DNA of 64,000 nt from Mobula hypostoma. Lineage: Eukaryota. The translations under genes were made by a program, and so were the position numbers. Numbering within the stretch: the stretch's first letter is position 1; each line of letters starts with the position of its first letter. The notes below the pieces were generated by a model. The model did not search any database. It saw only the letters and a list, made by a program, of their open reading frames with translations, and had not been told where the DNA came from. The DNA lies in assembly GCF_963921235.1 (NCBI RefSeq), contig NC_086108.1, positions 16,864,001 to 16,928,000 on the forward strand. Direction: 5' to 3'. Below, piece after piece: positions 413 through 61,645 of this stretch.

Positions 413-1428
413 TCAGTACTTAGTAACACCCCCTTTGGCAATTATCACAGCTTGTAAACATTTTCTGTAGCCAGCTAGGTGTCTTTCAATTCTTGTTTGG
501 GGGATTTTCACCATTCTTCCTTGCAAAAGGCTTCTAGTTCTGTGAGATCCTTGGGTTGTCTTGCATACATTGCTCTTTTGAGGTCTATCCACAGATTTTC
601 AGTGGTCAGGGGACTGTGAGGGCCATGGCAAAACCTTCAGTTTGCGTCTCTTCAGGTAGTCCATTGTGGATTTTGAGGTGTGTTTATGATCATTATCCTA
701 TTGTAGAAGCCATCCTCTTTTCATCTTCAGCTTTTTTTTTACAGATGGTGTGATGTTAGCTTCCAGAATTTGCTGGTATTTAATTGAATTCATTCTTCCC
801 TCTACCAGTGAAATATTCCCCATGCCACTGCCTGCAACACAAACCCAAAGCATGACCGATCCACCCCCATGCTTAACAGTTGGAGAGCTGTTCTTTTCAT
901 GAAATTCTGCACCCTTTTTTCTCCAAACATACCTTTGCTCATTGCAGCCAAAAAGTTCTATTTTAACTTCATCAGTCCACAGGACTTGGTTCCAAAATGC
1001 ATCAGGCTTATTTAGCTGATCCTTTGCAAACTTCTGACGCTGAATTTTGTGGTGAGGACGCAGGAAAGATTTTCTTCTGATGACTCTTCCATGAAGTTCA
1101 TATTTGTGCAGGTGTCGCTGCACAGTAGCACAGTGCACCAGCACTCCAGAGTCTGCTAAATCTTCCTAAAGGTCTTTTGCAGTCAAACGAGGGTTTTGAT
1201 TTGCCTTTCTAGCAATCCTAACAGCAGTTCTCTCAGAAAGTTTTCTTGGTCTTCCAGCCTCAACTTGACCTCCACCGTTCCTATAAACTGCTATTTCTTA
1301 ATTACATTACGAACTAAGGAAACAGCTACCTGAAAACGCTTTGCTATTTTCTTAGAGCCTTCTCCTGCTTTGTGAGCATCATTTATTTTAATCTTCAGAG
1401 TGCTAGGCAGCTGCTTAGAGGAGCCCAT
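413..1428 (-). pseudogene. Tc1 DDE transposase pseudogene
   Basis: Starts MGSSKQLPSTLKIKI...KKIAKRFQVAV (HTH). ORF 698-1144 has WTDE and KHGGGSVMLW. Then LLQ*DND, a WPSQSPD region with a small deletion, and the end AKGGVTKY*. In-frame stops and frameshifts are present. Confidence 0.9.
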
Positions 1429-1576
1429 GGCTGCTGATTATTGGGACAAGGTTTCTGTCTGTCTGTCTGTCTGTATCTTGTTTTACGGCAGTTGGCATCC
1501 AGCTTAGTGGTGCATTACCGCCACCCTCTGCTCCAGAATGTGCACTATACATACATTCTAAATCCCTTCACCCAAT

Positions 1577-1604
<28 letters not shown>
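1577..1604. repeat. (CA)n microsatellite in the LINE 3' UTR
   Basis: Direct reading of about 14 CA units. Confidence 0.95.
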
Positions 1605-1607
<3 letters not shown>

Positions 1608-1662
1608 CTACACTTCACCCTCCCATCTTTGACCATCCTAGTATCCTATTCCTGTTTATTCG

Positions 1663-4600
1663 TCATATTCTATAAAAAACCCCTGTACCCCTTAAAAACG
1701 CTAAAAATACCCGGACTTGTGCTCTCTCACCCATGCCCAGCAACCCTTTTAATGTGAATTCCTGCATCCCCAACTCCCTTAATTTATTTCTCATCATCTC
1801 TCTCTGTATCCCATACTTCCTGCAACACAAAACTACATGTTCTACTGACTCCTCTTCCTGACATTCCTCACACAATCCTGTCTGGTATTTCCCTATCATT
1901 TTCAATGTTTTGTTTAATGCACAATGCCCCAGCCTTAACCTAGTCCACACAATTTCCTCTCTTCTGTTTCCATTACCTACCCTAGTAACTGCAACACTCT
2001 TTTGTATTTGATATAAATGCCTCCCTTTCCCCTCCCTGTCCCATCTTTCTTGCCACATTCGGTTGACTTTTTCCCAGATTACACACTTAACCTCTGCTTT
2101 ACTGATACTAATGTGCATTTCCACATTTTCTTTCTTTAACGCCCTCTTTGCCAACTCATCCACCCTCTCATTCCCCTTCACCCCTACATGTGCTGGAACC
2201 CATAGAAATTTTACCTGACCTCCCTGATTTGCAATTCTTGTAACTAACTGAAGGACTTCATAAAGTACATCTTGCCGACTGTTTGTGTGAAAAGACCTTA
2301 AACTTGCTAGAACTGAGGATGAATCTGAACATATCAATGCTTTGGATGGTCTGGCTTTCTGCACCCATTGCAACGCAACCAACACTGCCAGCATCTCCAC
2401 TGTAAACACCCCTAACTTATTAGATGTTCTTCTGCTGATTCCAATTTCTTTTGCTGGTATAACCACCCCAAACCCTGTCACTCCTGTTTCAGGTTCCTTC
2501 GCACCATCCGTATAAATGTGAGTATAATCACTATACTTTTCCATCACATGACAGTTAAATGCATTTACTAAATCTGTTTTATATCTTTCTTTCCTTTTTA
2601 CCTCTAACAAATGCCAGTCTATGTCAGGCCATACAAGCTTCCATGGAGCTACAACCGGATAAACTACTGAAGGACTTATCCTCAGATCAAACAGTCCACA
2701 TTCTTTCGCGATATCATTCCCTACCCGACTAAAGGTATCCCCTCTGAAACCTCCCATTTTCCCAGCACTCCTGCAACACTCCTTTAGTAGGGTGAGAATC
2801 ATTGTGCCCCTGCAAGTTAGCCCAGTAGTTTGCCATCAGTTGCATCCTTCTTAGTTCCAAAGGCATTATTCCCATTTCTACCTGTAGGGCTGACACTGGT
2901 GACGTTTTAAAAGCCCCACTGCACACTCTCAAGGCCTGAGCCTGAATCGCATCCAGTTTCCTTATTAGAGACCTAGCTGCTGATCCATATACTATATTTC
3001 CATAATACAATACAGATCTTACTAAAGCCACATACATTCTCTTCAAAGCTGAACAACTTGCTCCCCATTCCCTACCAGTCAAACATCTCATCACATTTAT
3101 TACTTTTTTACATTTCTCCTCAACTTTCCTGATATGGTCTGCCCATGTTAATTGTGAATCAGATATAACTCCCAGAAATTTAAATGATGCAACCCTTTCT
3201 AATTCAACCCCATACATCCTTAACTTCTTCCTTACCTCAACCCTTTTCCTGGTAAAAAATACAGTTTGAGTTTTATCTACTGAAAATCTACATCCCCAAT
3301 CATAACCCCACTCCACCACTTCATCAATTGCTTCTTGTAGTTTCCTGATTATATAGTCCATGTTCCTGCCTCTTTTCCACAAGGCCCCATCATCCGCAAA
3401 CAGTGACCTACCTATATCCACTGGTACCTTTGTGAAGACATCATTGATCATAATCATGAAAAGTAATGGGCTAATCACACTACCTTGAGGTGTGCCATTT
3501 TCCACCATGTACTGTTTTGATAATTCTGATCCAATCCGAACTTGAATTTTTCTACCAAACAAAAAATCTTTAATCCAATTAAAAACTCTTCCACCAACCC
3601 CCATCTTGTGCAGTTTAATTAATAATCCTTCCTTCCACATCATATCATAGGCTTTTTCAATGTCAAAGAACACTGCCACTACTGACTCTCTATTTGCCTG
3701 GGCCTTCCTTATTTCAGTCTCTAACGTAATCACTGAGTCCATGGAATTCCTTCCCTTTCTAAAACCACTCTGATAACTTGCCAGCATTCCCCTTTTCTCA
3801 AGCTCATATATAACCTTTCTGTTATCATCCTTTCCATTATCTTACATATACTTGATGTTAATGCAATTGGTCTGTAGCTAGTGGGTTTTGACAGATCCTT
3901 GCCAGGCTTCCTTATTGGAATTACTACTGCTTCTTTCCATGCACTTGGTAATCTTCCCTCCTCCCACACTCTGTTATAAAAATGCAGCAACTTCAAGAGT
4001 GCTCCTTCTCCTAGATTTTTTAGCATCACAGAGCATATCAGATCTTTCCCTGGGGAGGTTGGTCTCGATCTCTTCATTGCTCTCACCATTTCTGCTAATG
4101 TAAATGGATCATCAATTATATCATCTGTTCCTTCCCTCCTGCTTAACACACCTGGGTGTTGGCTCATTATTCTTTCCCTTCTTCTTCTCCCTTCTTCAGA
4201 CAAATTTTCTGAACTGTGTATCAGTACAAATGACTTGGCCATGACCTCAGCCTTATCCCTACTGGAGACTGCAGTTTCCTACTCAGATATCATTACCGGA
4301 TATTCCCATTCCCTTCTATCTCCTCCCATCCTCTTAATCATTCCCCATATCTCTCCCACAGGTGTTGTTCTTCCTACCTTGTTGCAAAAACTCCTCCAAC
4401 TTGCCCTTTTAGCTTGACGTATAGTTCTTCTCACCACTGCCTGTGCTTTCTTATATTGAACCAAATGCTGCATATTATGGGTTCTTTTAACTAGCCTGAA
4501 TGCTCTATTTCTGTTTTTTACAGCCTGACAACATTCCTCTGTCCACCATGGTATCAGTTTTCTATTCATCCTATTTTTACTCCTAGGTATAGATCCTTCT

Positions 4601-5409
4601 GCTGCCATGATAATTGCTGAAGTCACCTGTTTAATTCATCTAAATTTCCAGAAATATCAATCTTTGTCAACCCTTCTTCACTCAACTTCTGGAACTTACC
4701 CCGATCAGCTTTTTCAAACACCCACTTTGGGGTTCCACCACCTGGTCTTACTTCAACTCTTTCACCCACTGAACACAAAACTGGGTAGTGATCACTGCCT
4801 ACTGTTGAAGCAGTCCAAACTCCCCAGTTACTAATGCCAGCCAAGGTATTAGACACTAACGTAATATCTAACACTGACTCAGTTCCTGTTGTTATATCTA
4901 TTCTTGTGCCGCTACCATCATTCATACACACCAAATCCCTTTCTTCCATCAAATCTTCAATTACCTTTCCATTTGGATCTGTAATCTGATCCCCCCATAT
5001 TGTGCTATGAGCATTGAAATCTGCACACCACACTACTTTATGTCTGTTTTGTCTTTGTATCTTTAATAGGCTGTCCAAATCCAACCTTTTACATGGATTG
5101 TAGTAGTTAATTATAACCCTCCCCTCTCTCCCACACTTCCACCACTATGTATTCCTGATCATCTCCTTTCTCCAGTACCCTATATGGTATACCTTGCTTG
5201 ATTAACATAGCACAACCCCCTCCTCCCCCTAGATTTCTATCTTTCCTTATCATTGTATACCCATATACCACAAAGTCTAAAGTTGGTTTCAACCAAGTTT
5301 CCTGAATACACACTACATCCGGTTTTACAACCATTTCTTTAATAAAGTGCTTGAATTCCTGGCTATTGGCCAGTAAGCTCCTTGCATTCCATTGTAAAAG
5401 AATCACCAT
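1663..5409 (-). pseudogene. LINE ORF2 (APE endonuclease, RT, RNase H, C-terminal CCHC), disrupted
   Basis: Motifs QWNARS, CIQETW, DFNAH, GSDHYP, YRPIALTS, PQGSVISP, LFADD, YTDG, WVPAHVGVKGNERVD and CEEC..HVVLCC are split over six ORF pieces. Confidence 0.92.
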
Positions 5410-5417
5410 AATTAGTA

Positions 5418-6737
5418 TTAATCAACACATGACACTTCCTGGCTTGACTGATTATTGAGGTTCTCCCTCACTTCCTCCCATGTCAGTAATACTAACCCTA
5501 AATGGTTTACTGCTGCTTTTACCACCAGCTGAATTTTGTCACTTTTTGACTTTACCTCAGCAGTACTATTAATCACTCCTGCAATGAATGTTACTAGAGC
5601 CTTTTTGTCTACATAAATCCTGTCATTTGTTCTTTGTTGCATCTCTCGTATTCCTATTGCTCCCTGTTCATTAGGAACATTATTCTGTTCTCTTGACATT
5701 CTTACAGCTTCTGCATAAGTGATCTTTCTTTTCACTCTTATTTCTTGAATTTTAGTCTCCCGTCTCACAACCTCACACCCACTATATGCAACATTATGAG
5801 CTCCTCCACAATTGCAGCATTTTGGTTGAACTCCTGTTCCGCACTTTCCATATTCATGATCACCCCCACATCTAGCACATCTCCTCTGCCTTTTACAGTT
5901 TTTAGCCACGTGTCCAAACCTTTGACAATTATAGCACCTCAATGGCTTTGGCACATACACCCTTACTGGGTAACTCATGAAACCCAGGAACACCTTCCTT
6001 GGCACTCTTTCTTCTTCAATTTCAATCAATACAGATTCACTTTCCTTTTTCACTCCCTCCTTTGTTGTTTTCAGTCTTTGAACATTCATTACTTTCCCTC
6101 CTTTGATATTCCTCTTTATCTCCTCCATATTTATACTCATTGGTATCCCCGTGATCACTCCTTTACAACCACTGTTTTGTGCTCCCACCCTCCCAGTGTA
6201 TTCCACCTTGCATTTTCCTATCTCTTTTAGCTTGAGTGCTTTCTCAAGTTGTTCCTCATTCGCACATCTTACCAATAAGTTGCCATCATTAAGGACTTTT
6301 GCAAATACTATTTCCCCTATCTTATTTGTCAGAGTTGTTGTTAGCACAAACGGGTTAATTTTCTTCATATGTCCCTGAGCCTTCTCATTAAACCTAGTTA
6401 TGACAACACCTCCTCTCTGAGCTTGTTCATCTTCCTCACTTTCAGAGCTTTCTCCACTATCATTGCTTATTCTTTTATTCCCTTTGTCTTGGTTTTTATT
6501 CATCCAACCCCTCACTACCTCCTCATTCCCTTTATTTCTCCCTTCACAATAATCCACCTCTCCCCAGCTGCCTACCTCTGGTCCCAAGTCTCTATCCCTC
6601 TCCTTCTCCACTTTCTTTCCCTCAACCCCGCCTCTTATCTTGTCCACCATTACCGGACCCACATGACCCCCTCCCAGCAATTTCCGTTCCTTCCCCACTC
6701 TCTTTCCCTCAACAGGTTCCAAAACACACTCACACAT
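5418..6737 (-). CDS. LINE ORF1, gag-like nucleic-acid-binding protein
   Basis: Uninterrupted frame with three knuckles (CYNCQRFGHVAKNC, CARCGGDHEYGKC, CCNCGGAHNVAYSGC). The start codon is uncertain (ATG at 6737 or 6650). Confidence 0.85.
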   Translation of the reverse strand: MCECVLEPVEGKRVGKERKLLGGGHVGPVMVDKIRGGVEGKKVEKERDRDLGPEVGSWGEVDYCEGRNKGNEEVVRGWMNKNQDKGNKRISNDSGESSESEEDEQAQRGGVVITRFNEKAQGHMKKINPFVLTTTLTNKIGEIVFAKVLNDGNLLVRCANEEQLEKALKLKEIGKCKVEYTGRVGAQNSGCKGVITGIPMSINMEEIKRNIKGGKVMNVQRLKTTKEGVKKESESVLIEIEEERVPRKVFLGFMSYPVRVYVPKPLRCYNCQRFGHVAKNCKRQRRCARCGGDHEYGKCGTGVQPKCCNCGGAHNVAYSGCEVVRRETKIQEIRVKRKITYAEAVRMSREQNNVPNEQGAIGIREMQQRTNDRIYVDKKALVTFIAGVINSTAEVKSKSDKIQLVVKAAVNHLGLVLLTWEEVRENLNNQSSQEVSCVD

Positions 6738-6942
6738 CAAGCAAAACACAGCCAGCTTCCAGCAGCAGCCCACACTCAATCTGGCCTGGGACAAGGTTTG
6801 AGAAGTCAGGGTATTTATAAAGCTTTGAAATTTGCATCACCTGGCCTTTCCTAATGATGACTGTGAAAAGCCATAGCCCTAACAAGCTAATTAAGGTCTG
6901 AGACCTCGGTGGAAGTTATCTGAGAGCTCAAATCTCTTGGCC

Positions 6943-7471: not shown

Positions 7472-8228
7472 CTGCAAATAGTGGAAAGTTGAAACAAGAC
7501 AGAGAAAGCCAGTCTCAGTCACCAAGTAAAGCCAAGTCTATGGGAGAAAATCAAGAGCCAAAGTCTGTTCATCAGTGCAAATAAATTGTAGGTGCTATAC
7601 ATTGGAAACTAGAACAGAAAATACTGAAGGACTCCCAATGAATTCTGTTATGTGATGCAACTTGACCTCTTGAATGGTTCCAGAATTTTCTGTTCTGGTG
7701 ATCTGAAGTTTGAGTTCTCAAGGTGTCAAAGATTGATGAGAATGCTATTGTCCAAAGAAATAGACAATTACGATCAAAGAGACTGAGAAACTCTGCAAAA
7801 AGTTTCTCCCCAAACTACTCTGACAATAGCTTTTATCACAGGAGAGGTGATCATAACATAGATGTGCTCCAATCCAAGAAGCCTGCTGGTATCTGTAACA
7901 CTTACCCAGAACCTTAAGAACCTAATCCTGAGGGAAAATTTGGTTTGTTTGATCTACCTCTAAATCAGTGCAGAAGGAATAATACCAGAAGTCGAGCATT
8001 ATTCCCAGACAACTGCTAAACTAAAAACAGGAAAACAAGTCACCAATCCCAAGAATTAACATCCAATAGTTTTTCTGTCTGCAAATTAAGTAGCTCGCCC
8101 TGAACCAGATAAAAAAAACCCCAGAAACTGCTTTCATAAGGAAATCTGCACATGCTGGAATTTCAAGCAACACACATTAAAGTTGTTGGTGAACACAGCA
8201 GGCCAGGCAGCATCTCTAGGAAGAGGTA

Positions 8229-8266
8229 CAGTCGACGTTTCGGGCTGAGACCCTTCGTCAGGACTA
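8229..8266 (-). ncRNA. Minimal type I hammerhead ribozyme in PLE pLTR
   Basis: Minus strand reads TAGTC-CTGACGA-AGGGTCTCAGCCC-GAAA-CG-TC^GACTG: conserved core, helix II, and helix I pairing AGTC/GACT. Confidence 0.8.
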
Positions 8267-10426
8267 ACTGAAAGAAGAGCTAGTAAGAGATTTGAAAGTG
8301 GGAGGGGGAGGGGGAGGGGGAGATCCAAAATGATAGGAGAAGACAGGAGGGGGAGGGATGGAGCCAAGAGCTGGACAGGTGATTGGCAAAAGGGACATGA
8401 GAGGATCATGGGACAGGAGGCCTAGGGAGAAAGAAAAGGGGGAGCAGGGAAAGACCAGAGGATGGGCAAGGGGTACAGTGTGGGGGGACAGAGGGAGAAA
8501 AAGAGAGAGAAAAAGAATGTGTGTATATAAATAAATAACAGATGGGGTACAAGGGGGAGGTGGGGCATTAGCAGAAGTTTGAGAAGTCAATGTTCATGTC
8601 ATCAGGTTGGAGGCTACCCAGACGGAATATAAGGTGGTGTTCCTCCAACCTGAGTGTGGCTTCATCTTTACAGTAGAGGAGGCCGTGGATAGACATGTCA
8701 GAATGGGAATGGGGCGTGGAATTAAAATGTGTGGCCACTGGAAGATCCTGCTTTCTCTGGCGGACAGAGCATAGGTGTTCAGCGAAATGATCTCCCAGTC
8801 TGTGTTGGGTCTCGCCAATATCTAGAAGGGCACATTGGGAGCACAGTACACAGTATATCACCCCAGCTGACTCACAGGTGAAGTGTCGCCTCACCTGGAA
8901 GGACTGTCTGGGGCCCTGAACGGTGGTAAGGGAGGAAGTGTAAGGGCATGTATAGCACTTGTTCTGCTTACAAGGATAAGTGCCAAGAGGGAGATTGGTG
9001 GGGAAGGATGGAGGGGAGGAATGGACAAGGGAGTCGCGTAGGAAGCGATTCCTGCGGAAAGCAGAGGGGGGGAGGGAAAGATGTGCTTAGTGGTGCACGC
9101 ACGCTAAGCTCGTTGACTTCATTAACTGTGCCTCCAACTTTCACCCTGCCCTCAAGTTTACCTGGTCCATTTACGACACCTCCCTCCCCTTTCTAGATCT
9201 TTCTGTCTCTATCTCTGGAGACAGCTTATCTGCTGATGTCTACTATAAGCCTACTGACTCTCACAGCTATCTGGACTATTCCCCTTCTCACCCTATCGCT
9301 TGCAAAAATGCCATCCACTTCTCGCAATTCTTCCGTCTCCGCCACATCTGCTCTCAGGATGAGGCTTTTCATTCCAGGACGAAGGAGATGTCCTCCTTTT
9401 TTAAAGAAAGGGGCTTCCCTTCCTCCACCATCAACTCTGCTCTCAAACGCATCTCCCCCATTTGACGCACATCTGCCCTCACTCCATCTTCCCACCACCC
9501 CACTAGGAATAGGGTTCCCCTTGTCCTCACTTACCACCCCACCAGCCTCCGGATCCAACATATATTTCTCCATAACTTCCACCAACGGGATCCCACCACT
9601 AAGCACATCTTTCCCTCCCCCCCCCCCCCCCGGCTCTCTGCATTTTGCAGGGATCGCTCCCTACTCAACTCCCTTGTCCATTCATCCCCCCCATCCCTCC
9701 CCACCAATCTCCCTTCTGGCACTTATCCTTGTAAGCAGAACAAGTGCTACACATGCCCTTACACTGCCTCCCTCACTACCATTCAGGGCCCCAGACAGAC
9801 CTTCCAGGTGAAGCAACTCTTCACCTGTGAGTCGGCAGAGGTGATATACTGCGTCCGGTATTACTGATGTGGCCTTCTATATATTGGCGAGACCCGACAC
9901 AGACTGGGAGATCGTTTCGCTGAACGTCTATGCTCTGTCCGTCAGAGAAAGCAGGACCTCCCAGTGGCCACACATTTTAATTTCACATCCCATTCCCATT
10001 CTGATATGTCTATCCATGGCCTCCTCTACCGTAAAGATGAAGCCACACTCAGGTTGGAGGAACAACACCTTATATTCCGTCTGGGTAGTCTCCAACCTGA
10101 TGGCGTGAACATTAACTTCTCAAACTTCCACTAATGCCCCACTTCCCCCTCGTACCCCATCCGTTATTTATTTATACACACATTCTTTTTCTCTCTCTTT
10201 TTCTCCCTCTGTCCCCCTCACTATACCCCTTGCCCATCCTCTGGTCTTTACCCCTCCCCCTTTTCTTTCTCCCTCGGCCTCCTGTCCCATGATCCTCTCA
10301 TGTCCCTTTTGCCAATCACCTGTCCAGCTCTTGGCTCCATCCCTCCCCCTCCTGTCTTCTCCTTATCATTTTGGATCTCCCCCTCCCCCTCCCACTTTCA
10401 AATCTCTTACTAGCTCTTCTTTCAGT

Positions 10427-10464
10427 TAGTCCTGACGAAGGGTCTCGGCCCGAAACGTCGACTG
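10427..10464 (+). ncRNA. Minimal type I hammerhead ribozyme in PLE pLTR
   Basis: TAGTC-CTGACGA-AGGGTCTCGGCCC-GAAA-CG-TC^GACTG. Confidence 0.8.
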
Positions 10465-10672
10465 TACCTCTTCCTAGAGATGCTGCCTGGCCTGCTGCGT
10501 TCACCAGCATTTTTTGTGTGTGTTGCTCAGAAACTGCTTTATTACATTATCAGAGAGAAAAATTGTTGACCCAACCAGTGCTTTATACTATCAACACAAA
10601 GTCAGGATGTCAGAGAGAGATGCAAATAGGAGCTGCTTTCATAGCTATATCATTGACATTTGACAGCCCTTT

Positions 10673-25960: not shown

Positions 25961-27458
25961 ACATTCTCTCCACCCCTCTCCCTTTCTAATTCAAAGAACA
26001 ATTTTTAATGCTGATGAAGGGTCCTATATCTGAAATATCAACTCTCCTTTCTTTCCTTCATTAATTTGCAGCACCTGCTGAGTGCATCCAGCATTTTTGT
26101 TTTTTTTTGTTTTGGATTTCCAACATCTGCAGGTTTTTGTTTCAACTGAACATTACTTTCTTGCACCAATTTGCAATTCCCCTTTTTTTTAATTCTCAAA
26201 AGACGCAAAATAAAAGAAAGAGGCCAAGCTGGAACTGTGAGCATGGTTCTTATCCACATCATTCTATTTGTCTGTTTGAGTTAGGAAGGGCTTATGGAAA
26301 CAGTGACATTAATAAGGAAGAGCCACCTGTTCCAAATATGCAGTTTGTCCTGATTTGAAGCCAAAAAGTGAGACAGGGACTATTGCAGATCAAATCTAAA
26401 TCAGTAATACAGCAGAATAACACAACAATTTAAAATAAAAACAAAAAAAGACTGGCAAAACTCAAGTCTGCCAACATCTGTAAAAAGAGAGAGTCATGTT
26501 TTGGGTTTGCTATCCTTCAATGATTGTTTCTCTTTCACACATGTTGCCTGATCTGATGAGTTTTTCCCCAGAATTTTCAGATTTCCACTATCTACGGTCC
26601 TTTGATTGACAATTAACTTGGTTCTGTTGAAATGAGTTTAGATGAATAATGGAACCTTGACAGCCTTGGGGCTCAGGAAGAATCCCTCCAGATTAAAATT
26701 GCATCATGGCAAGGTGAGGGCAACTGAAGTCACCAAGTAATCAAATTCAAATCAAATTAAATTCACGTTTAATTATCATTCAACCATATACAAATACAGC
26801 CAAACGAAACAGCATTCCTCTGGGGCCAACGTTCAAAACATACACAGCACATTCAAAGTAGAGAGCAAAAAAGCCATATATATTTTTTCACATATCCAAA
26901 TAAACCTGTAAGAAATTTGATTCCATGGATGTGGGGAGTGCACTAAAACCTTAATGTAATAAGTTACTGATTCAAAGATTGCTATGATACACACTAATTC
27001 ATTGCACAATAAAATCTGTTCATACGATTAACATGTTCTTTTACTGGAACTTAAGTTGAATGCTGGTTGAATGAGACGTTTTTTAAAACTTTTTCTAGTT
27101 GAAGTCTGATAAATAGTGGAGAATTATAGCTTTGGGCATAGGTGGAGAACAGTTAGGGCTAAGAGCAGGTGTCTTTGCATAAGAATCACATTTGCACAAA
27201 GTTTAAAGTTGTTTAATTGCTATTTTTCCAAAATGGTATTAATATGCTCCACAAGTCCTGTTAACAATAATCAATTTAATGTAAACCATTGGCAGTAATG
27301 TAATTAAATAAAAGTAATTAAAAAGTATTTCAATGACATGAAATAATCTGTTTGCATCAAATTAAGTTGCAGTACTCTCAACAGAATGCCAAAAGTGGAA
27401 TGCCAAGGACTGCAGGATTCATGGCATGGTATTTATAGCGCTTCAATGACATTCCTAC

Positions 27459-27518
27459 TTGCTTTAGAACAAGTAGGTGACCTTCAAATGGTACGTTTTT
27501 AACACAACAGTAAACATC
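27459..27518 (-). CDS. Weak candidate exon of host gene (DVYCCVKNVPFEGHLLVLK[Q])
   Basis: Acceptor ttttctatgctgcag. Donor CAA|gtagga, or GC donor AA|gcaagt ending at 27463. Confidence 0.35.
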
Positions 27519-27945
27519 CTGCAGCATAGAAAATTTAGGAAGATTAAAGTTCTTATTTATATAATATCTAGCATATTCCCAGAGCCTCTCAAACCACTTC
27601 ATAAACCAGTAATTAACTATTCATAGTAATGTAGGCATATGTAGTATTAATTTGTGCATTGGGAATTCAAAAGCAAAACAGATAATTCATCAGATAATTT
27701 GTTTTGATTGAGTGCTGAAATCTGATCAGAACTGAGATTACATACCTTTTTCAAATAGTGCCATGTGATCTTTAACACATCTGAACAAATCTAGTTTATC
27801 ACCTCATTGATAGGACAACACCAACTGCATAGTTTTCCCTTGATTTGTCTCTAAAACTAACATTCTAATCTGCATTTGAGTTCTGAAGCAATATACGAAT
27901 ATCGATCTGCTAACTCTTGAGAAAACTACTGTTAAGAACAAAAGC

Positions 27946-28153
27946 AACACACATCAAAGTTGCTGGTGAACGCAGCAGGCCAAGCAGCATCTATAGGAAG
28001 AGGCGCAGTCGACGTTTCAGGCCGAGGAAGGGTCTCGGCCTGAAACGTCGACTGCGCCTCTTCCTATAGATGCTGCTTGGCCTGCTGCGTTCACCAGCAA
28101 CTTTGATGTGTGTTGCTTGAATTTCCAGCATCTGCAGAATTCCTGTTGTTTAC
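27946..28153. mobile_element. Miniature foldback Penelope-like insertion made only of pLTR ends
   Basis: 15-bp TSD GTTAAGAACAAAAGC at 27931-27945 and 28154-28168. Perfect 85-bp inverted arms with a 7-nt loop. Confidence 0.92.
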
Positions 28154-29260
28154 GTTAAGAACAAAAGCTTTTATTGTCCACCAATGCTTTTATTGTCCCA
28201 TTTTGGACTCTCAGGCTGAAGGTCGCATGACAACTTTATCAACAGATTGTGAGTTCAGACATCACTTTAGTACTTGAACATAGTATAAGATATCAGATTT
28301 AGTGGTATCCTAGAGAAAAGTTTGGGCTTGCTCAAAAATGTAGCAGGCATCTGACTAAAATCAAACATAGCATTGAAATTCATAAAACTATCCAAAAATG
28401 TTTGTATTTATTGCAATGCACACTTGCTATATAATTCCAAATAATTTGTTGACCTTGAAGAAATACACTATTTCAATATCATTCCAATATTTTAACTACT
28501 CTCTCTCAAAGACCAGAGTGATATTCCAGTCAGTCTAAAGTTACTTTAATCAGCAAATGAGAGTAAGTATTAACCCAGAACAACTAATCCGGATAAGTGT
28601 GAGGTGATGCATTTTGGAAGGACAAACCAGAAGGCTGAGTACAGGGTTAATGCTCAGTTTCTTAAGAGTGTGGATGAACAGAGGGACCTGGGGGTTCAAA
28701 TCCATACATCCCTCAAGGTCGCTACACAGATTGATAGGATAGTTAAGAAGGCCTATGGGATGCTAGGCTTCATTAATAGGGGGACTGAGTTCAAGAGTAG
28801 AGAGGTCATGTTGCAACTCTACAAATCTCTGGTGAGACCACTCTTCGAGTATTGTGTTCAGTTCTGGTCACCTCATTACAGGAAAGATGTGGAAGCTATG
28901 GAGAGGGTGCAGAGGAGATTTACCAGGATTTTGCCTGGATTGGAAAACAAGTCTTATGAGGCAAGGTTAGCAGAGCTGAGACTTTTCTCTATGGAGCGTA
29001 GAAGGATGAGAGGGGACTTGATAGAAGTCCACAAGATTATGAGAGGCATAGATAGGGTGGATAGCCAGTACCTGTTTCCCAGGGCACGAATAGCAAACAC
29101 CAGAGGGCATATGTAGGAAGTTAAGGGAAGGAAGTTTAGGGGAGACATCAGGGGTATGTATTTAAACAACAGGAATTCTGCAGATGCTGGAAATTCAAGC
29201 AACATACATCAAAGTTGCTGGTGAACGCAGCAGGCCAGGCAGCATCTATAGGAAGAGGCG

Positions 29261-29298
29261 CAGTCGACGTTTCAGGCCGAGACCCTTCGTCAGGACTA
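29261..29298 (-). ncRNA. Minimal type I hammerhead ribozyme in PLE pLTR
   Basis: Minus strand TAGTC-CTGACGA-AGGGTCTCGGCCT-GAAA-CG-TC^GACTG. Confidence 0.8.
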
Positions 29299-29592
29299 AC
29301 TGAAGGAAGAGTGAGTAAGGGATTTGAAAGCTGGAGGGGGAGGGGGAGATGCAAAATGATAGGAGAAGACAGGAGGGGGAGGGATGGAGCCGAGAGCTGG
29401 ACAGGTGATAGGCAGAAGGGGATACGAGAGGATCATGGGACAGGAGGTCCGGGAAGAAAGACGGGGGGGGGGGGTGACCCAGAGGATGGGCAAGAGGTAT
29501 ATTCAGAGGGACAGAGGGAGAAAAAGGAGAGTGAGAAAAAGAATGTGTGCATTAAAAAGAGTAACAGATGGGGTACGAGGGGGAGATGGGGC

Positions 29593-31203
29593 CTAGCGGA
29601 AGTTAGAGAAGTCAATGTTCATGCCATCAGGTTGGAGGCTACCCAGATGGAATATAAGGTGTTGTTCCTCCAACCTGAGTGTGGCTTCATCTTTACAGTA
29701 GAGGAGGCCGTGGATAGACATGTCAGAATGGGAATGGGATGTGGAATTAAAATGTGTGGCCACTGGGAGATCCTGCTTTCTCTGGCGGACAGAGCGTAGA
29801 TGTTCAGCAAAGCGGTCTCCCAGTCTGCGTCGGGTCTCACCAATATATAAAAGGCCACATCGGGAGCACCGGACGCAGTATATCACCCCAGTCGACTCAC
29901 AGGTGAAGTGATGCCTCACCTGGAAGGACTGTTTGGGGCCCTGAATGGTGGTAAGGGAGGAAGTGTAAGGGCATGTGTAGCACTTGTTCCGCTTACACGG
30001 ATAAGTGCCAGGAGGGAGATCAGTGGGGAGGGATGGGGGGGACGAATGGACAAGGGAGTTGTGTAGGGAGCGATCCCTGCGGAATGCAGAGAGAGGCGGG
30101 GAGGGAAAGATATGCTTAGTGGTGGGATCCCGTTGGAGGTGGCGGAAGTTACGGAGAATAATATGTTGGACCCGGAGGCTGGTGGGGTGGTAGGTGAGGA
30201 CCAGGGGAACCCTATTCCTAGTGGGGTGGTGGGAGGATGGAGTGAGAGCAGATGTACGTGAAATGGGGGAGATGCGTTTAAGAGCAGAGTTGATAGTGGA
30301 GGAAGGGAAGCCCCTTTCTTTAAAAAATGAAGACATCTCCCTCGTCCTAGAATGAAAAGCCTCATCCTGAGAGCAGATGCGGCGGAGACGGAGGAATTGC
30401 GAGAAGGGGATGGCGTTTTTGCAAGAGACAGGGTGAGAAGAGGAATAGTCCAGATAGTTGTGAGAGTCAGTAGCCTTATAGTAGACATCAGTGGATAAGC
30501 TGTCTCCAGAGACAGAGACAGAAAGATCTAGAAAGGGGAGGGAGGTGTCAGAAATGGACCAGGTAAACTTGAGGGCAGGGTGAAAGTTGGAGGCAAAGTT
30601 AATAAAGTTAACGAGTTCTGCATGCGTGCAGGAAGCAGCGCCAATGCAGTCGTCGATGTAGCGAAGGAAAAGTGGGGGACAGATACCAGAATAGGCACGG
30701 AACATAGATTGTTCCACAAACCCAACAAAAAGGCAGGCATAGCTAGGACCCATACGGGTGCCCATAGCTACACCTTTAGTTTGGAGGAAATGGGAGGAGC
30801 AAAAGGAGAAATTATTAAGAGTAAGGACTAATTCTGCTAGACGGAGCAGAGTGGTGGTAGAGGGGAACTGATTAGGTCTGGAATCCAAAAAGAAGCGTAG
30901 AGCTTTGAGACCTTCCTGATGGGGGATGGAAGTATATAGGGACTGGACATCCAAGGTGAAAATAAAGCGGTGGGGGCCAGGGAACTTAAAATCATCGAAA
31001 AGTTTAAGAGCGTGAGAAGTGTCACGAACATAGGTCGGAAGGGATTGAACAAGGGGTGATAAAACAGTGTCGAGGTATGCAGAAACGAGTTCGGTGGGGC
31101 AGGAGCAAGCTGAGACAATAGGTCGGCCAGGACAGGCAGGTTTGTGGATCTTGGGTAGGAGGTAGAAACCGGAAGTGCGGGGTGTGGGAACTATAAGGTT
31201 GGT
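29593..31203 (-). CDS. PLE reverse transcriptase plus GIY-YIG endonuclease (about 536 aa, no native start)
   Basis: Stop-free frame: FYLLPKIHK, GRPIVS, LDVQSLYTSI, GVAMGTRMGPSYA, RYIDD, linker CKRNKCYTC and GVIYCVRCSRCGLLYIGET. Confidence 0.92.
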   Translation of the reverse strand, partial: TNLIVPTPRTSGFYLLPKIHKPACPGRPIVSACSCPTELVSAYLDTVLSPLVQSLPTYVRDTSHALKLFDDFKFPGPHRFIFTLDVQSLYTSIPHQEGLKALRFFLDSRPNQFPSTTTLLRLAELVLTLNNFSFCSSHFLQTKGVAMGTRMGPSYACLFVGFVEQSMFRAYSGICPPLFLRYIDDCIGAASCTHAELVNFINFASNFHPALKFTWSISDTSLPFLDLSVSVSGDSLSTDVYYKATDSHNYLDYSSSHPVSCKNAIPFSQFLRLRRICSQDEAFHSRTREMSSFFKERGFPSSTINSALKRISPISRTSALTPSSHHPTRNRVPLVLTYHPTSLRVQHIILRNFRHLQRDPTTKHIFPSPPLSAFRRDRSLHNSLVHSSPPSLPTDLPPGTYPCKRNKCYTCPYTSSLTTIQGPKQSFQVRHHFTCESTGVIYCVRCSRCGLLYIGETRRRLGDRFAEHLRSVRQRKQDLPVATHFNSTSHSHSDMSIHGLLYCKDEATLRLEEQHLIFHLGSLQPDGMNIDFSNFR

Positions 31204-31469
31204 AGCAGGGGTATGTATTTTTTTTACACAGTGGGTTGTGGGTGCCTGGAATGACTTGCCAGGGATGGTGGTGGAGGCTAAAACATTAGGGGTATTTAAG
31301 AGCCTCTTGGACAGGCACATGGATGAAAGAAAAATAGAGGGTTGTGGGGTAGTGTGGGTTTAGTACATTTTTTTAGGAATATATGGGTCGGCACAACATC
31401 GAGGGCCGAAGGGACTGTACTGTGCTGTAGTATTCTAGTGTCTAGTGTCTAAAACTGAAAGCATCTTGC

Positions 31470-45830: not shown

Positions 45831-46807
45831 GAGAATAACTATCCTCATTGGATTCAATAGGATTATAATTTCCAAATCTCCTCCCCCAACCCATTAAGCC
45901 TAGGGCTCACCACTGAACAGAAATTCAACTGGATAAACCACAAAAATATTGTGATTACAAAAGCAGGTTAGAACTGTATATCTAGCAATAAATAATTCAC
46001 ATCATGACACCTAAGGCCTTTCTATTAACTAACAAGGTACAAAGCAGGAGTGTAATGGGAAACTCTCCATTTTATGAATGCAGTGTCAACAACTCAAGTA
46101 GTTAATTATCCAGGACAAAGAAGACTGCATCATTGCCACATCTTCCATCATCAGTTCCCAGGGCTACTCAAGGACAAAGGCAAGAGGAGCATGGGAGCAT
46201 GACCACATGCTGGCACTGCTACAAATCAAGCAAAACACTAGCTTGGAATTACAATATGATTAAAAAGTTTTAAATAATCAACGTCTTAAAAACAAAATCA
46301 AAGTCTCTGCCTCAAAGTCACTCACTATTCACGAATACCTTGTTTGTTACACCTAAATGACAGTACCTCATGCCGTGAAAATTCTAGGCAAGACATTTCA
46401 AGTGTTTTCTGAAATGCTTTGTGGACAAAACACTTCTTCAGCATTCTTTATAAAATGCCTACTTATTAGCATAACATATTACAATGTGACTTGTAGTCAT
46501 TTTGCAAATTGCCAAAAAATGTTAAAGGCAGCAACTTGCTGAAAAACACACAAGCACAAACATCCGATGTATAGTGTTAACTAACTGGAAAACTCAAATC
46601 TAAAATGCACATGTATCTGATATTTTTCTGTATAATAATCTGAATCACTGGAAAAATTGTACTCAAAATGCACTATCTGCGCACCAATTTAAAAGCATGG
46701 TTTGTTTCACTCATAAAACAGCAGTTAATGGCGACCAAAATAAATTATGAAGTTTAGAATAAAGACTACTTAAATTATCAAACCAAATTTCCATATCTTG
46801 TATTAGA

Positions 46808-50696: not shown

Positions 50697-51389
50697 GTTG
50701 GAGAACAGATAGTTGCGTTCACCAGCAACTTTGATGGATATTGAGCTAAGTTGTCTTTATTTGCAGCCAGTTATCAGAGACTCCTTGTTAAATCTTAAAG
50801 TCCATTTTTCTTTCAGTCTTAACTGCATCGTCTCCAGTGCCCCTAAAATAGTTCCGAGACTTAAGATACAGTGGACTCAAGTGCTATCTAATCAGTGTTC
50901 AGTACCAGTTTTTCGATGTTCAACTTTTCGCTTGAAATAAATACTAGTGCTTGATTTGCTTTATTTATGAGCTTGAAATTTTGTGTGCAACTCTTAATGA
51001 TTGGCATATATGTACCCAGAGTTCTCTTCTATAACCCCTACCCCACATGGACTTGTACCATCCAAAAATCTGTCCTTTCTGTACTGCCCTGCATTTATCT
51101 TTGTAGGACTTTATTTACCAATTATTCACCAATTTATTTACCAATTCATATGTTAAAGTCTTCCTCACTCTTAACCGTAACATCAGTTTGGTATGAGCCT
51201 CAAAACTTAGAAACAGGATATTTGATTCCAGTTTTAATTATAAATTCAGCACTAATGACAGAAAATCTGAAGATACTGTAAATCCAAAGGAACACACACA
51301 AAATGCTGAAGGAACTCAGCAGGCCAGGCTGTATCAATGGAAAAGAGTAAACAGACAATGTTTCAGGCTGAGACTTCAGGGGAAGAAAG

Positions 51390-60806: not shown

Positions 60807-61645
60807 CATTAGCGGAAGTTGAAGAAGTCGACGTTCATGCCATCAGGTTGGCGGCTACCCAGACAGAATATAAGGTGTTGTTCCTCCAACCTGAGTGTGG
60901 CTTCATCTTTACAGTAGAGGAGGCCGTGGATAGACATGTCAGAATGGGAATGGGATGTGGAATTAAAATGTGTGGCCACTGGGAGATCCTGCTTTCTCTG
61001 GCGGACGTAGGTGTTCAGCAAAGCGGTCTCCCAGTCTGCGTCGGGTCTCGCCAACATAAAGAAAGTCACATCGGGAGCACCGGACGCAGTACGTCACCCC
61101 AGTCGACTCACAGGTGAAGTGTCGCCTCACCTGGAAGGACTGTTTGGGGCCCTGAGTAGTATCGTCTGGGTAGCCTCCAACCTGATGGCATGAACATCGA
61201 CTTCTCCAACTTCCGGTAATGCCCCACCTCCCCCTCGTACCCATCCGTTATTTATTTTTATACACACATTCTTTCTCTCACTCTCCTTTTTCTCCCTCTG
61301 TTTCTCTGACTATACCCCTTGCCCATCCTCTGGGTTCCCCCCTCCTTTGTCTTTCTCCCCGGACCTCCTGTCCCATGATCCTCTCATATCCCCTTTGCCA
61401 ATCACCTGTCCAGCTCTTGGCTCCATCCCTCCCCCTCCTGTCTTCTCCTATCATTTTGGATCTCCCCCTCCCCCTCCCACTTTCAAATCTCTTACTAACT
61501 CTTCCTTCAGTTAGTCCTGACGAAGGGTCTTGGCCTGAAACGTCAACTGTACCTCTTCCTAGAGATGCTGCCTGGCCTGCTACGTTCACCAGCAACTTTG
61601 ATGTGTGTTGCTTGAATTTCCAGCATCTGCAGAATTCCTGTTGTT
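60807..61645. mobile_element. Penelope-like inverted insertion at the right inversion breakpoint (minus arm 60807-61155, 7-nt filler, plus arm 61163-61645)
   Basis: GIY-YIG fragment on the minus strand. Endonuclease end, pLTR and tail on the plus strand. Confidence 0.9.
61512..61549 (+). ncRNA. Minimal hammerhead ribozyme in PLE pLTR, helix I mismatch
   Basis: TAGTC-CTGACGA-AGGGTCTTGGCCT-GAAA-CG-TC^AACTG. Confidence 0.7.

Follow-up and report, generated by a model that had tools for sequence, protein, structure and literature searches.

Within the analysed window, a stretch of 64,000 nucleotides of Mobula hypostoma DNA whose numbering is used throughout, positions 27931 to 28168 hold a short insert made of two inverted arms. 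The arms (27942–28026 and 28034–28118) are reverse complements at 85 of 85 positions and are separated by the 7-nt loop GAAGGGT; only one of them is followed by a tail, of 35 nt (28119–28153). The 15-bp TSD GTTAAGAACAAAAGC lies on both sides, at 27931–27945 and 28154–28168. Arms, loop, tail and TSD are all as given in the original prediction, down to the coordinates. So is the perfect hairpin: the RNA fold has an energy of -189.6 kcal/mol (z = -28), a value equalled by none of 200 shuffles.

The letters AAGC (27942–27945) are at once the end of the left TSD copy (27931–27945, plus strand) and the first 4 nt of the left arm. The insert proper is therefore 27946–28153 (208 bp). Its own stem measures 81 bp, to which microhomology with the target adds 4 bp at the tail-less end. 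The symmetry axis of the hairpin falls on 28030, and the physical junction of the arms lies between 28026 and 28027, where exact microhomology is 0 nt. The insert has neither an ORF nor a complete ribozyme.

Read from the left, the tail-less arm (27942–28026, sense on the minus strand) is the 3'-terminal 85 nt of a PLE pLTR. Its 3' end lies at the tail-less site, within 4 nt of the family's tail-less ends at 10527 and 50743, and its 5' end is the first nucleotide of hammerhead loop II. The 7-nt spacer (28027–28033, plus strand) is the start of the sense arm and comprises G8-A9 of the hammerhead core, an extra A and the 5' strand of helix II. The tailed sense arm (28027–28118, plus strand) holds a truncated minimal hammerhead and the rest of the pLTR end; it continues into the PLE tail (28119–28153, plus strand), which is found on this arm only. 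The right TSD copy (28154–28168, plus strand) opens with GTT, 3 nt that probably match the continuation of the family as well, a match based on the consensus of loose contig ends behind 28144 (runs X1 and X6), with a weak agreement of 0.47–0.48 over 30 letters. The tail has a length described for PLEs, 30–40 bp (PMC11167929, PMC8557442).

The source family is represented about 1 kb away by a 5'-truncated, tailed PLE copy of the same young subfamily (copy C; 29149–31220, minus strand). It extends from 29163 to about 31205, has its own 15-bp TSD (at 29149 and 31206) and an open frame of 588 aa, P0001. Aligned with the 3' end of copy C, the right arm and its tail agree at 124 of 126 positions and the left arm agrees at 83 of 85; the insert is made solely of the 3' (pLTR) ends of the element, as claimed. 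In Pfam, P0001 matches RVT_1 (E 1.2e-5) and GIY-YIG (E 4.6e-4) with scores that stay below the curated cut-offs; comparison of P0001 with solved structures gave no match. The match to copy C and the presence of RT and GIY-YIG domains in its frame thus identify the family of the hairpin. Upstream of GIY-YIG, P0001 has a C-x4-C-x2-C linker, and two cysteines stand between the GIY and YIG parts. A CX2-5CxxC motif in the RT-EN linker is a mark of the Neptune and Nematis clades (PMC8557442). We therefore regard the source of the hairpin as a putative Neptune-type PLE, an assignment by linker motif rather than by a tree, and one in which the motif is common to Nematis. In X1 the family reaches a depth of 3–8 million, compared with 12 on the flanks; depth is not a copy number, and suggests a very large family.

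Copy C itself has no inverted arm, its frame is unbroken, and it is inserted in a fragment that we take to be LINE-like; Pfam gave no match for 28574–29113, part of this fragment. Two further pieces of the family were seen in the window: a 30-nt tail-less end at 50714–50743, beyond which the letters are the reverse complement of those past the tailed end at 61645, and an inverted internal piece at 60810–61155.

The pLTR of the family carries a predicted minimal hammerhead. At the gathering threshold Rfam gave no hammerhead match in the whole window, and by E-value none of its 10 matches over 27800–29500 was a hammerhead. A pattern built from the description of minimal PLE hammerheads (PMC4209133) matches six times in the window, where 0.39 matches are expected, and in seven aligned window copies helices I–III are paired in 92.5% of 67 cells, compared with 10–42% in slid controls. 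Two-sided covariation in the helices was absent among these seven copies. The intact window copies resemble the minimal metazoan hammerheads in their core, in the extra nucleotide after A9, in a 4-bp helix II, in a palindromic 2-bp helix III and in a 4-bp helix I (PMC4209133).

In the tailed arm of the insert helix II occupies 28030–28041 and GAAAC-GTC 28042–28049, with a predicted cut after 28049. The turn had been placed inside helix II. This holds for the symmetry axis, which coincides with the first pair of helix II, and not for the physical junction, which lies in the catalytic core, between a sense arm that opens with G8-A9 and an antisense arm that reaches the first nucleotide of loop II and stops there. 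The predicted loss of the core stands, since the insert lacks five of its seven letters as well as the 5' strand of helix I; the family hammerhead can therefore not form in the insert. What remains of the region is fully paired within the long stem. At the core position the sequence now reads CCGAGGA, supplied by chance by the end of the left arm and one mismatch away from the pattern CTGANGA; with this core and a replaced helix I 5' strand, an active hammerhead in the insert was rejected. Both arms run past the predicted cut, so the template RNA was uncut. An uncleaved hammerhead RNA is also what a PLE protein uses as template in vitro (PMC11167929). Dual hammerhead motifs 100–700 bp apart on opposite strands have already been noted (PMC4209133). 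In the insert, unlike in those hammerheads, both motifs are cut short, the core and the 5' strand of helix I are missing, and the remainder is buried in the stem.

We compared four of the 24 listed sequencing runs, all as assembled contigs. In organism B (X6, record 25) a 1,590-nt contig runs over 26806–27930 and then directly over 28154–28580: it is the empty site, with a single copy of the TSD. Its flanks differ from the window at 15 positions in about 1,552 nt (0.97%). An empty site in a relative diverged by about 1% indicates that the insertion is real and younger than the split, or polymorphic across it. The claim of a very recent insertion is thereby upheld. The perfection of the arms dates the insert more loosely, as 0 differences in 85 allow a divergence of up to 3.5%. 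The empty site shows two local features within 28159–28198: a 10-bp A/T-rich palindrome spans the position of the top-strand nick, and a 19-nt imperfect tandem duplication (28161–28179 and 28180–28198) begins within the TSD.

The contigs of X1, which may be the source sample, follow the window with 0 other letters from the left flank to 27966 in the antisense arm, and again from 28132 in the tail to the right flank. Their overlap with the insert is 21 and 22 nt, below the 31-letter bridging rule. X1 shows no branch at the TSD; as contigs drop variants, this is no claim of homozygosity. The loop junction was not found among the matches listed (32 contig pieces, with 107,036 more outside the list). 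This absence, together with the possible identity of X1 with the source sample, would suit a perfect palindrome created by the assembly or the library on top of a real short insertion. We consider such an artefact extremely unlikely, given the clean 15-bp TSD facing a true empty site, the X1 contigs that enter the insert from both flanks, and the same anatomy recurring in the window and in the literature.

This recurrence is provided by a larger head-to-head insertion of the same family at 8122–10540 (2.4 kb), with a 13-bp TSD at 8122 and 10528. Its tailed arm, of about 960 nt, extends to 9095 and its tail-less arm, of about 1,430 nt, from 9094 to 10527, so that the two overlap by 2 nt at the turn; the spacer is about 550 nt. 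The tail-less end lies within 4 nt of that of the hairpin. The two arms are identical at 843 of 914 positions, and sites of the subfamilies are shared between them (14 sites separating A and B from C and D, one crossing site). The tail-less arm terminates in a cluster of differences resembling the older copies at 46807 and 51258, which hints at two unequal templates.

In the sequencing runs the loose ends of family contigs cluster at 28117–28121 and 28144–28156, about 35 nt apart (best 24 of 883), that is at both borders of the tail. The arms of the hairpin have their 3' ends at these two family end sites, each end facing outward. Of the best 15 joints (of 215), 14 turn from antisense to sense at other positions. 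Together with the best 12 of 180 rows with inserted letters, the matches listed comprise 20 distinct turns, counted after two rows were dropped (28118 to 28156, on opposite strands, and 28108 to 28027, a step back). Their spacers measure 3 to 78 nt, and none of the 20 starts at the ribozyme cut. Exact microhomology of at least 2 nt is found in 8 of the 20 listed turns compared with 14% of background pairs (P about 0.005), for a biased set that is made up of the best-supported turns and was compared with a single family copy. Sense-arm starts cluster at 28020–28033, but a hot spot there was rejected: the sense part of the reference begins at 28027, and the list is restricted to the best-supported rows. 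The turn of the hairpin had been singled out as special; the 20 listed turns at many positions and the 2.4-kb inverted copy in the same window speak against this.

These turns also bear on whether the palindrome was formed once and then retrotransposed as a unit, as a replicating non-autonomous hairpin family, a MITE-like derivative of the PLE. All 20 listed turns differ from one another and from that of the hairpin, which cannot itself appear as a joint, and a second copy of the mini-hairpin was not found in the window. An 85-bp perfect stem would moreover be expected to hide the RT start sites. In favour of such a family, the element retains both terminal cis sites, and among the matches listed some other turns stand in single contigs at depths of 60–227, compared with about 12 in the single-copy flank (5–19x), although contig depth is no copy number. 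Two of them, both without microhomology, are candidate amplified junctions: 27979 to 28075 (depth 227, in X1 only) and 27989 to 28057 (depth 71 in X1 and 52 in X6), the latter thus occurring in both organisms at similar relative depth. Taken together, we regard a replicating family as decidedly improbable. A turn of an older subfamily, 27975 to 28027, has a depth of 9 in the DNA run X1 and of 102 and 34 in two runs guessed to be RNA, and may represent a transcribed hairpin at another place in the genome. One could go further and imagine hundreds of pLTR-only hairpins in the genome, some with turns amplified as units or transcribed, the locus being a fresh MITE-like retrotransposing member that supplies dsRNA against an abundant repeat; this is improbable.

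The insert is almost certainly a single, young Neptune-type PLE insertion, dead on arrival and of the ordinary head-to-head kind, both of whose arms are extremely short. An inverted arm, a one-sided tail, a TSD and the 3' ends of the element bear out the original prediction that it is a minimal product of the known pathway of inverted, tailed PLE insertion. An inverted 5'-truncated copy, a one-sided tail, a TSD and a junction palindrome have all been published (PMC3846280, PMC8557442, PMC8969392).

Twin target priming, in which both cut ends prime cDNA at two RT start sites and the products are end-joined, is the mechanism that we think probably formed it. The GIY-YIG endonuclease would have cut the two target strands 15 bp apart, as the TSD suggests, and uncleaved element RNA would have been copied into cDNA with each 3' overhang as primer. 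On the bottom strand synthesis would have begun at the start site of the tail, where a 3-nt match is probable; on the top strand it would have begun 35 nt further in, at the tail-less start site, where the 4-nt match was observed. The two cDNAs would have stopped inside the hammerhead after about 125 and 85 nt and been joined end to end, presumably at the observed junction lacking exact microhomology. The hairpin would so have been built at integration, from one source subfamily. Priming at two start sites would account for the fixed end point of second arms. In vitro a PLE protein cuts and extends both target strands, two RT start sites define the tail, and the protein is predicted to be a dimer (PMC11167929); as described in the available parts of that study, the element was a Poseidon and not a Neptune, and the inverted product was not reconstituted.

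The original prediction spoke of a foldback. As a mechanism this is one of two candidates and, in our reading, the less likely one: a cDNA started at the tail site would have folded back in the hammerhead, been copied back to the tail-less site, and annealed to the target through the 4-nt match. Such self-priming has been proposed by Arkhipova et al. for palindromic PLE junctions (PMC3846280). The spacer of only 7 nt would suit it, and a weak hairpin of the family cDNA is possible over the turn region (-2.6 kcal/mol), although the predicted register would leave in the loop family letters that the insert lacks. The arms, identical at 85 of 85 positions, share minority family letters at 28056 and 28077, where other letters hold 69% and 67% of the X1 depth; this agrees equally well with fold-back and with two templates derived from one source. 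Taking the letter 27983/28077 as a private RT error in favour of fold-back was rejected, as the other letter holds only 67–83% of the depth in the four runs. Against fold-back, exact microhomology at the junction is 0, the spacers vary (3–78 nt among the listed turns, about 550 nt at 8122–10540), and an extra step is needed for second arms to end at the known second RT start site. We consider fold-back rather doubtful. Points set against twin priming are the lack of exact microhomology at the junction and a patchy inverted match there that is not above chance, 17% of 4,753 pairs scoring as high; a turn on a significant quasi-palindrome was rejected on the same count of position pairs.

In L1 twin priming both target ends prime cDNA, giving a 5' inversion inside one TSD, and each cDNA is copied from a different part of one RNA. 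In the hairpin, in contrast, both cDNAs cover the same 85 nt, so that two RNAs, or the re-use of one, are needed. A DNA transposon of the MITE kind was rejected as the identity of the insert, which has a 35-nt tail outside the repeat at one end and a sequence that is the end of a retroelement.

Among PLEs the closest parallels are the insertions of Pen2a_Av in Adineta vaga (PMC3846280; scheme in PMC8557442, Fig. 2), which are alike in their head-to-head truncated copies, a tail of 30–40 bp at one end, a TSD and a junction palindrome. Compared with insertions of this type as described there, the hairpin has no ORF and no direct pLTR, its arms of 85 and 127 nt are each shorter than one pLTR, and it totals 208 bp. 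PAc, a Poseidon element of Anolis carolinensis studied in vitro, is alike in two RT starts that bound the tail, in the priming of both strands, in an AT-rich target and in an uncleaved RNA (PMC11167929), whereas the family of the hairpin has the CX2-5CxxC linker of the Neptune/Nematis type. The non-LTR retrozymes of animals (bioRxiv 10.64898/2026.07.22.740005) are likewise short, non-coding, derived from pLTRs and related to hammerheads; as described in the accessible text they are tandem direct repeats with complete ribozymes, whereas the insert is one inverted pair with a broken ribozyme. With neither tandem direct repeats nor complete hammerheads, it was rejected as a retrozyme.

The locus is thus real, young and ordinary, the shortest form of the usual two-armed head-to-head PLE insertion. 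Among the titles and abstracts found on such insertions, in a collection with few subscription papers, none described a hairpin this small, and the supplementary figures of genomic PLE ends in the cited papers could contain such minimal hairpins. Taken singly, the locus illustrates a published insertion pattern in datable form and could serve to tell close relatives apart by its presence or absence; its value is collective, as one of many young hairpins. Short young hairpins place both priming sites, the turn and the TSD within one read, and bear on how PLEs make inverted arms (PMC8557442, PMC11167929). A genome-wide set could separate twin target-priming from self-priming, and could reveal any part played by the ribozyme cut, which had none in the formation of this insert.

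The case of an insert lying in an intron had been considered. None of 296 open frames gave a convincing Pfam match to a host gene, the matches being transposon domains or weak and below threshold, which leaves such a placement unsupported; the frames, of at least 45 aa, comprise nearly all those under 30% repeated plus six repeat frames, and short exons would be missed. The runs X5 and X10, guessed to be RNA and possibly DNA, have flank contigs of depth 3–7.5. Among the matches listed they show no flank piece closer than about 150 nt to the insert, a gap to which we attach no evidential weight. The Rfam miRNA matches at the locus were rejected, as they reach 45 bits for cut-offs of 82–92 and reflect the pairing of the hairpin only.

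The stem is perfect on either strand, and a locus producing a hairpin RNA that feeds Dicer or ADAR and silences the PLE family could be envisaged. The low-depth flank contigs of the two guessed-RNA runs would suit it, and siRNAs matching inverted Penelope regions are described in Drosophila (PMC3681739), so that the hairpin as a source of siRNA is plausible by analogy, but not new. Set against a functional locus are the 296 frames that gave no convincing host exon, the guessed label of the RNA runs, the miRNA scores just given and the absence of the insert from a relative 1% away, which makes it not conserved. The family is also abundant in both orientations and includes longer inverted pairs, to which 85 bp would add little. 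A silencing function is very unlikely, and the locus is most likely without function. Elsewhere in the window, an approximately 5-kb non-LTR element on the minus strand (701–6836) has zinc-knuckle ORF, AP endonuclease, RT and RNase H frames, and Tc1-type transposase fragments at 701–1437 adjoin it.
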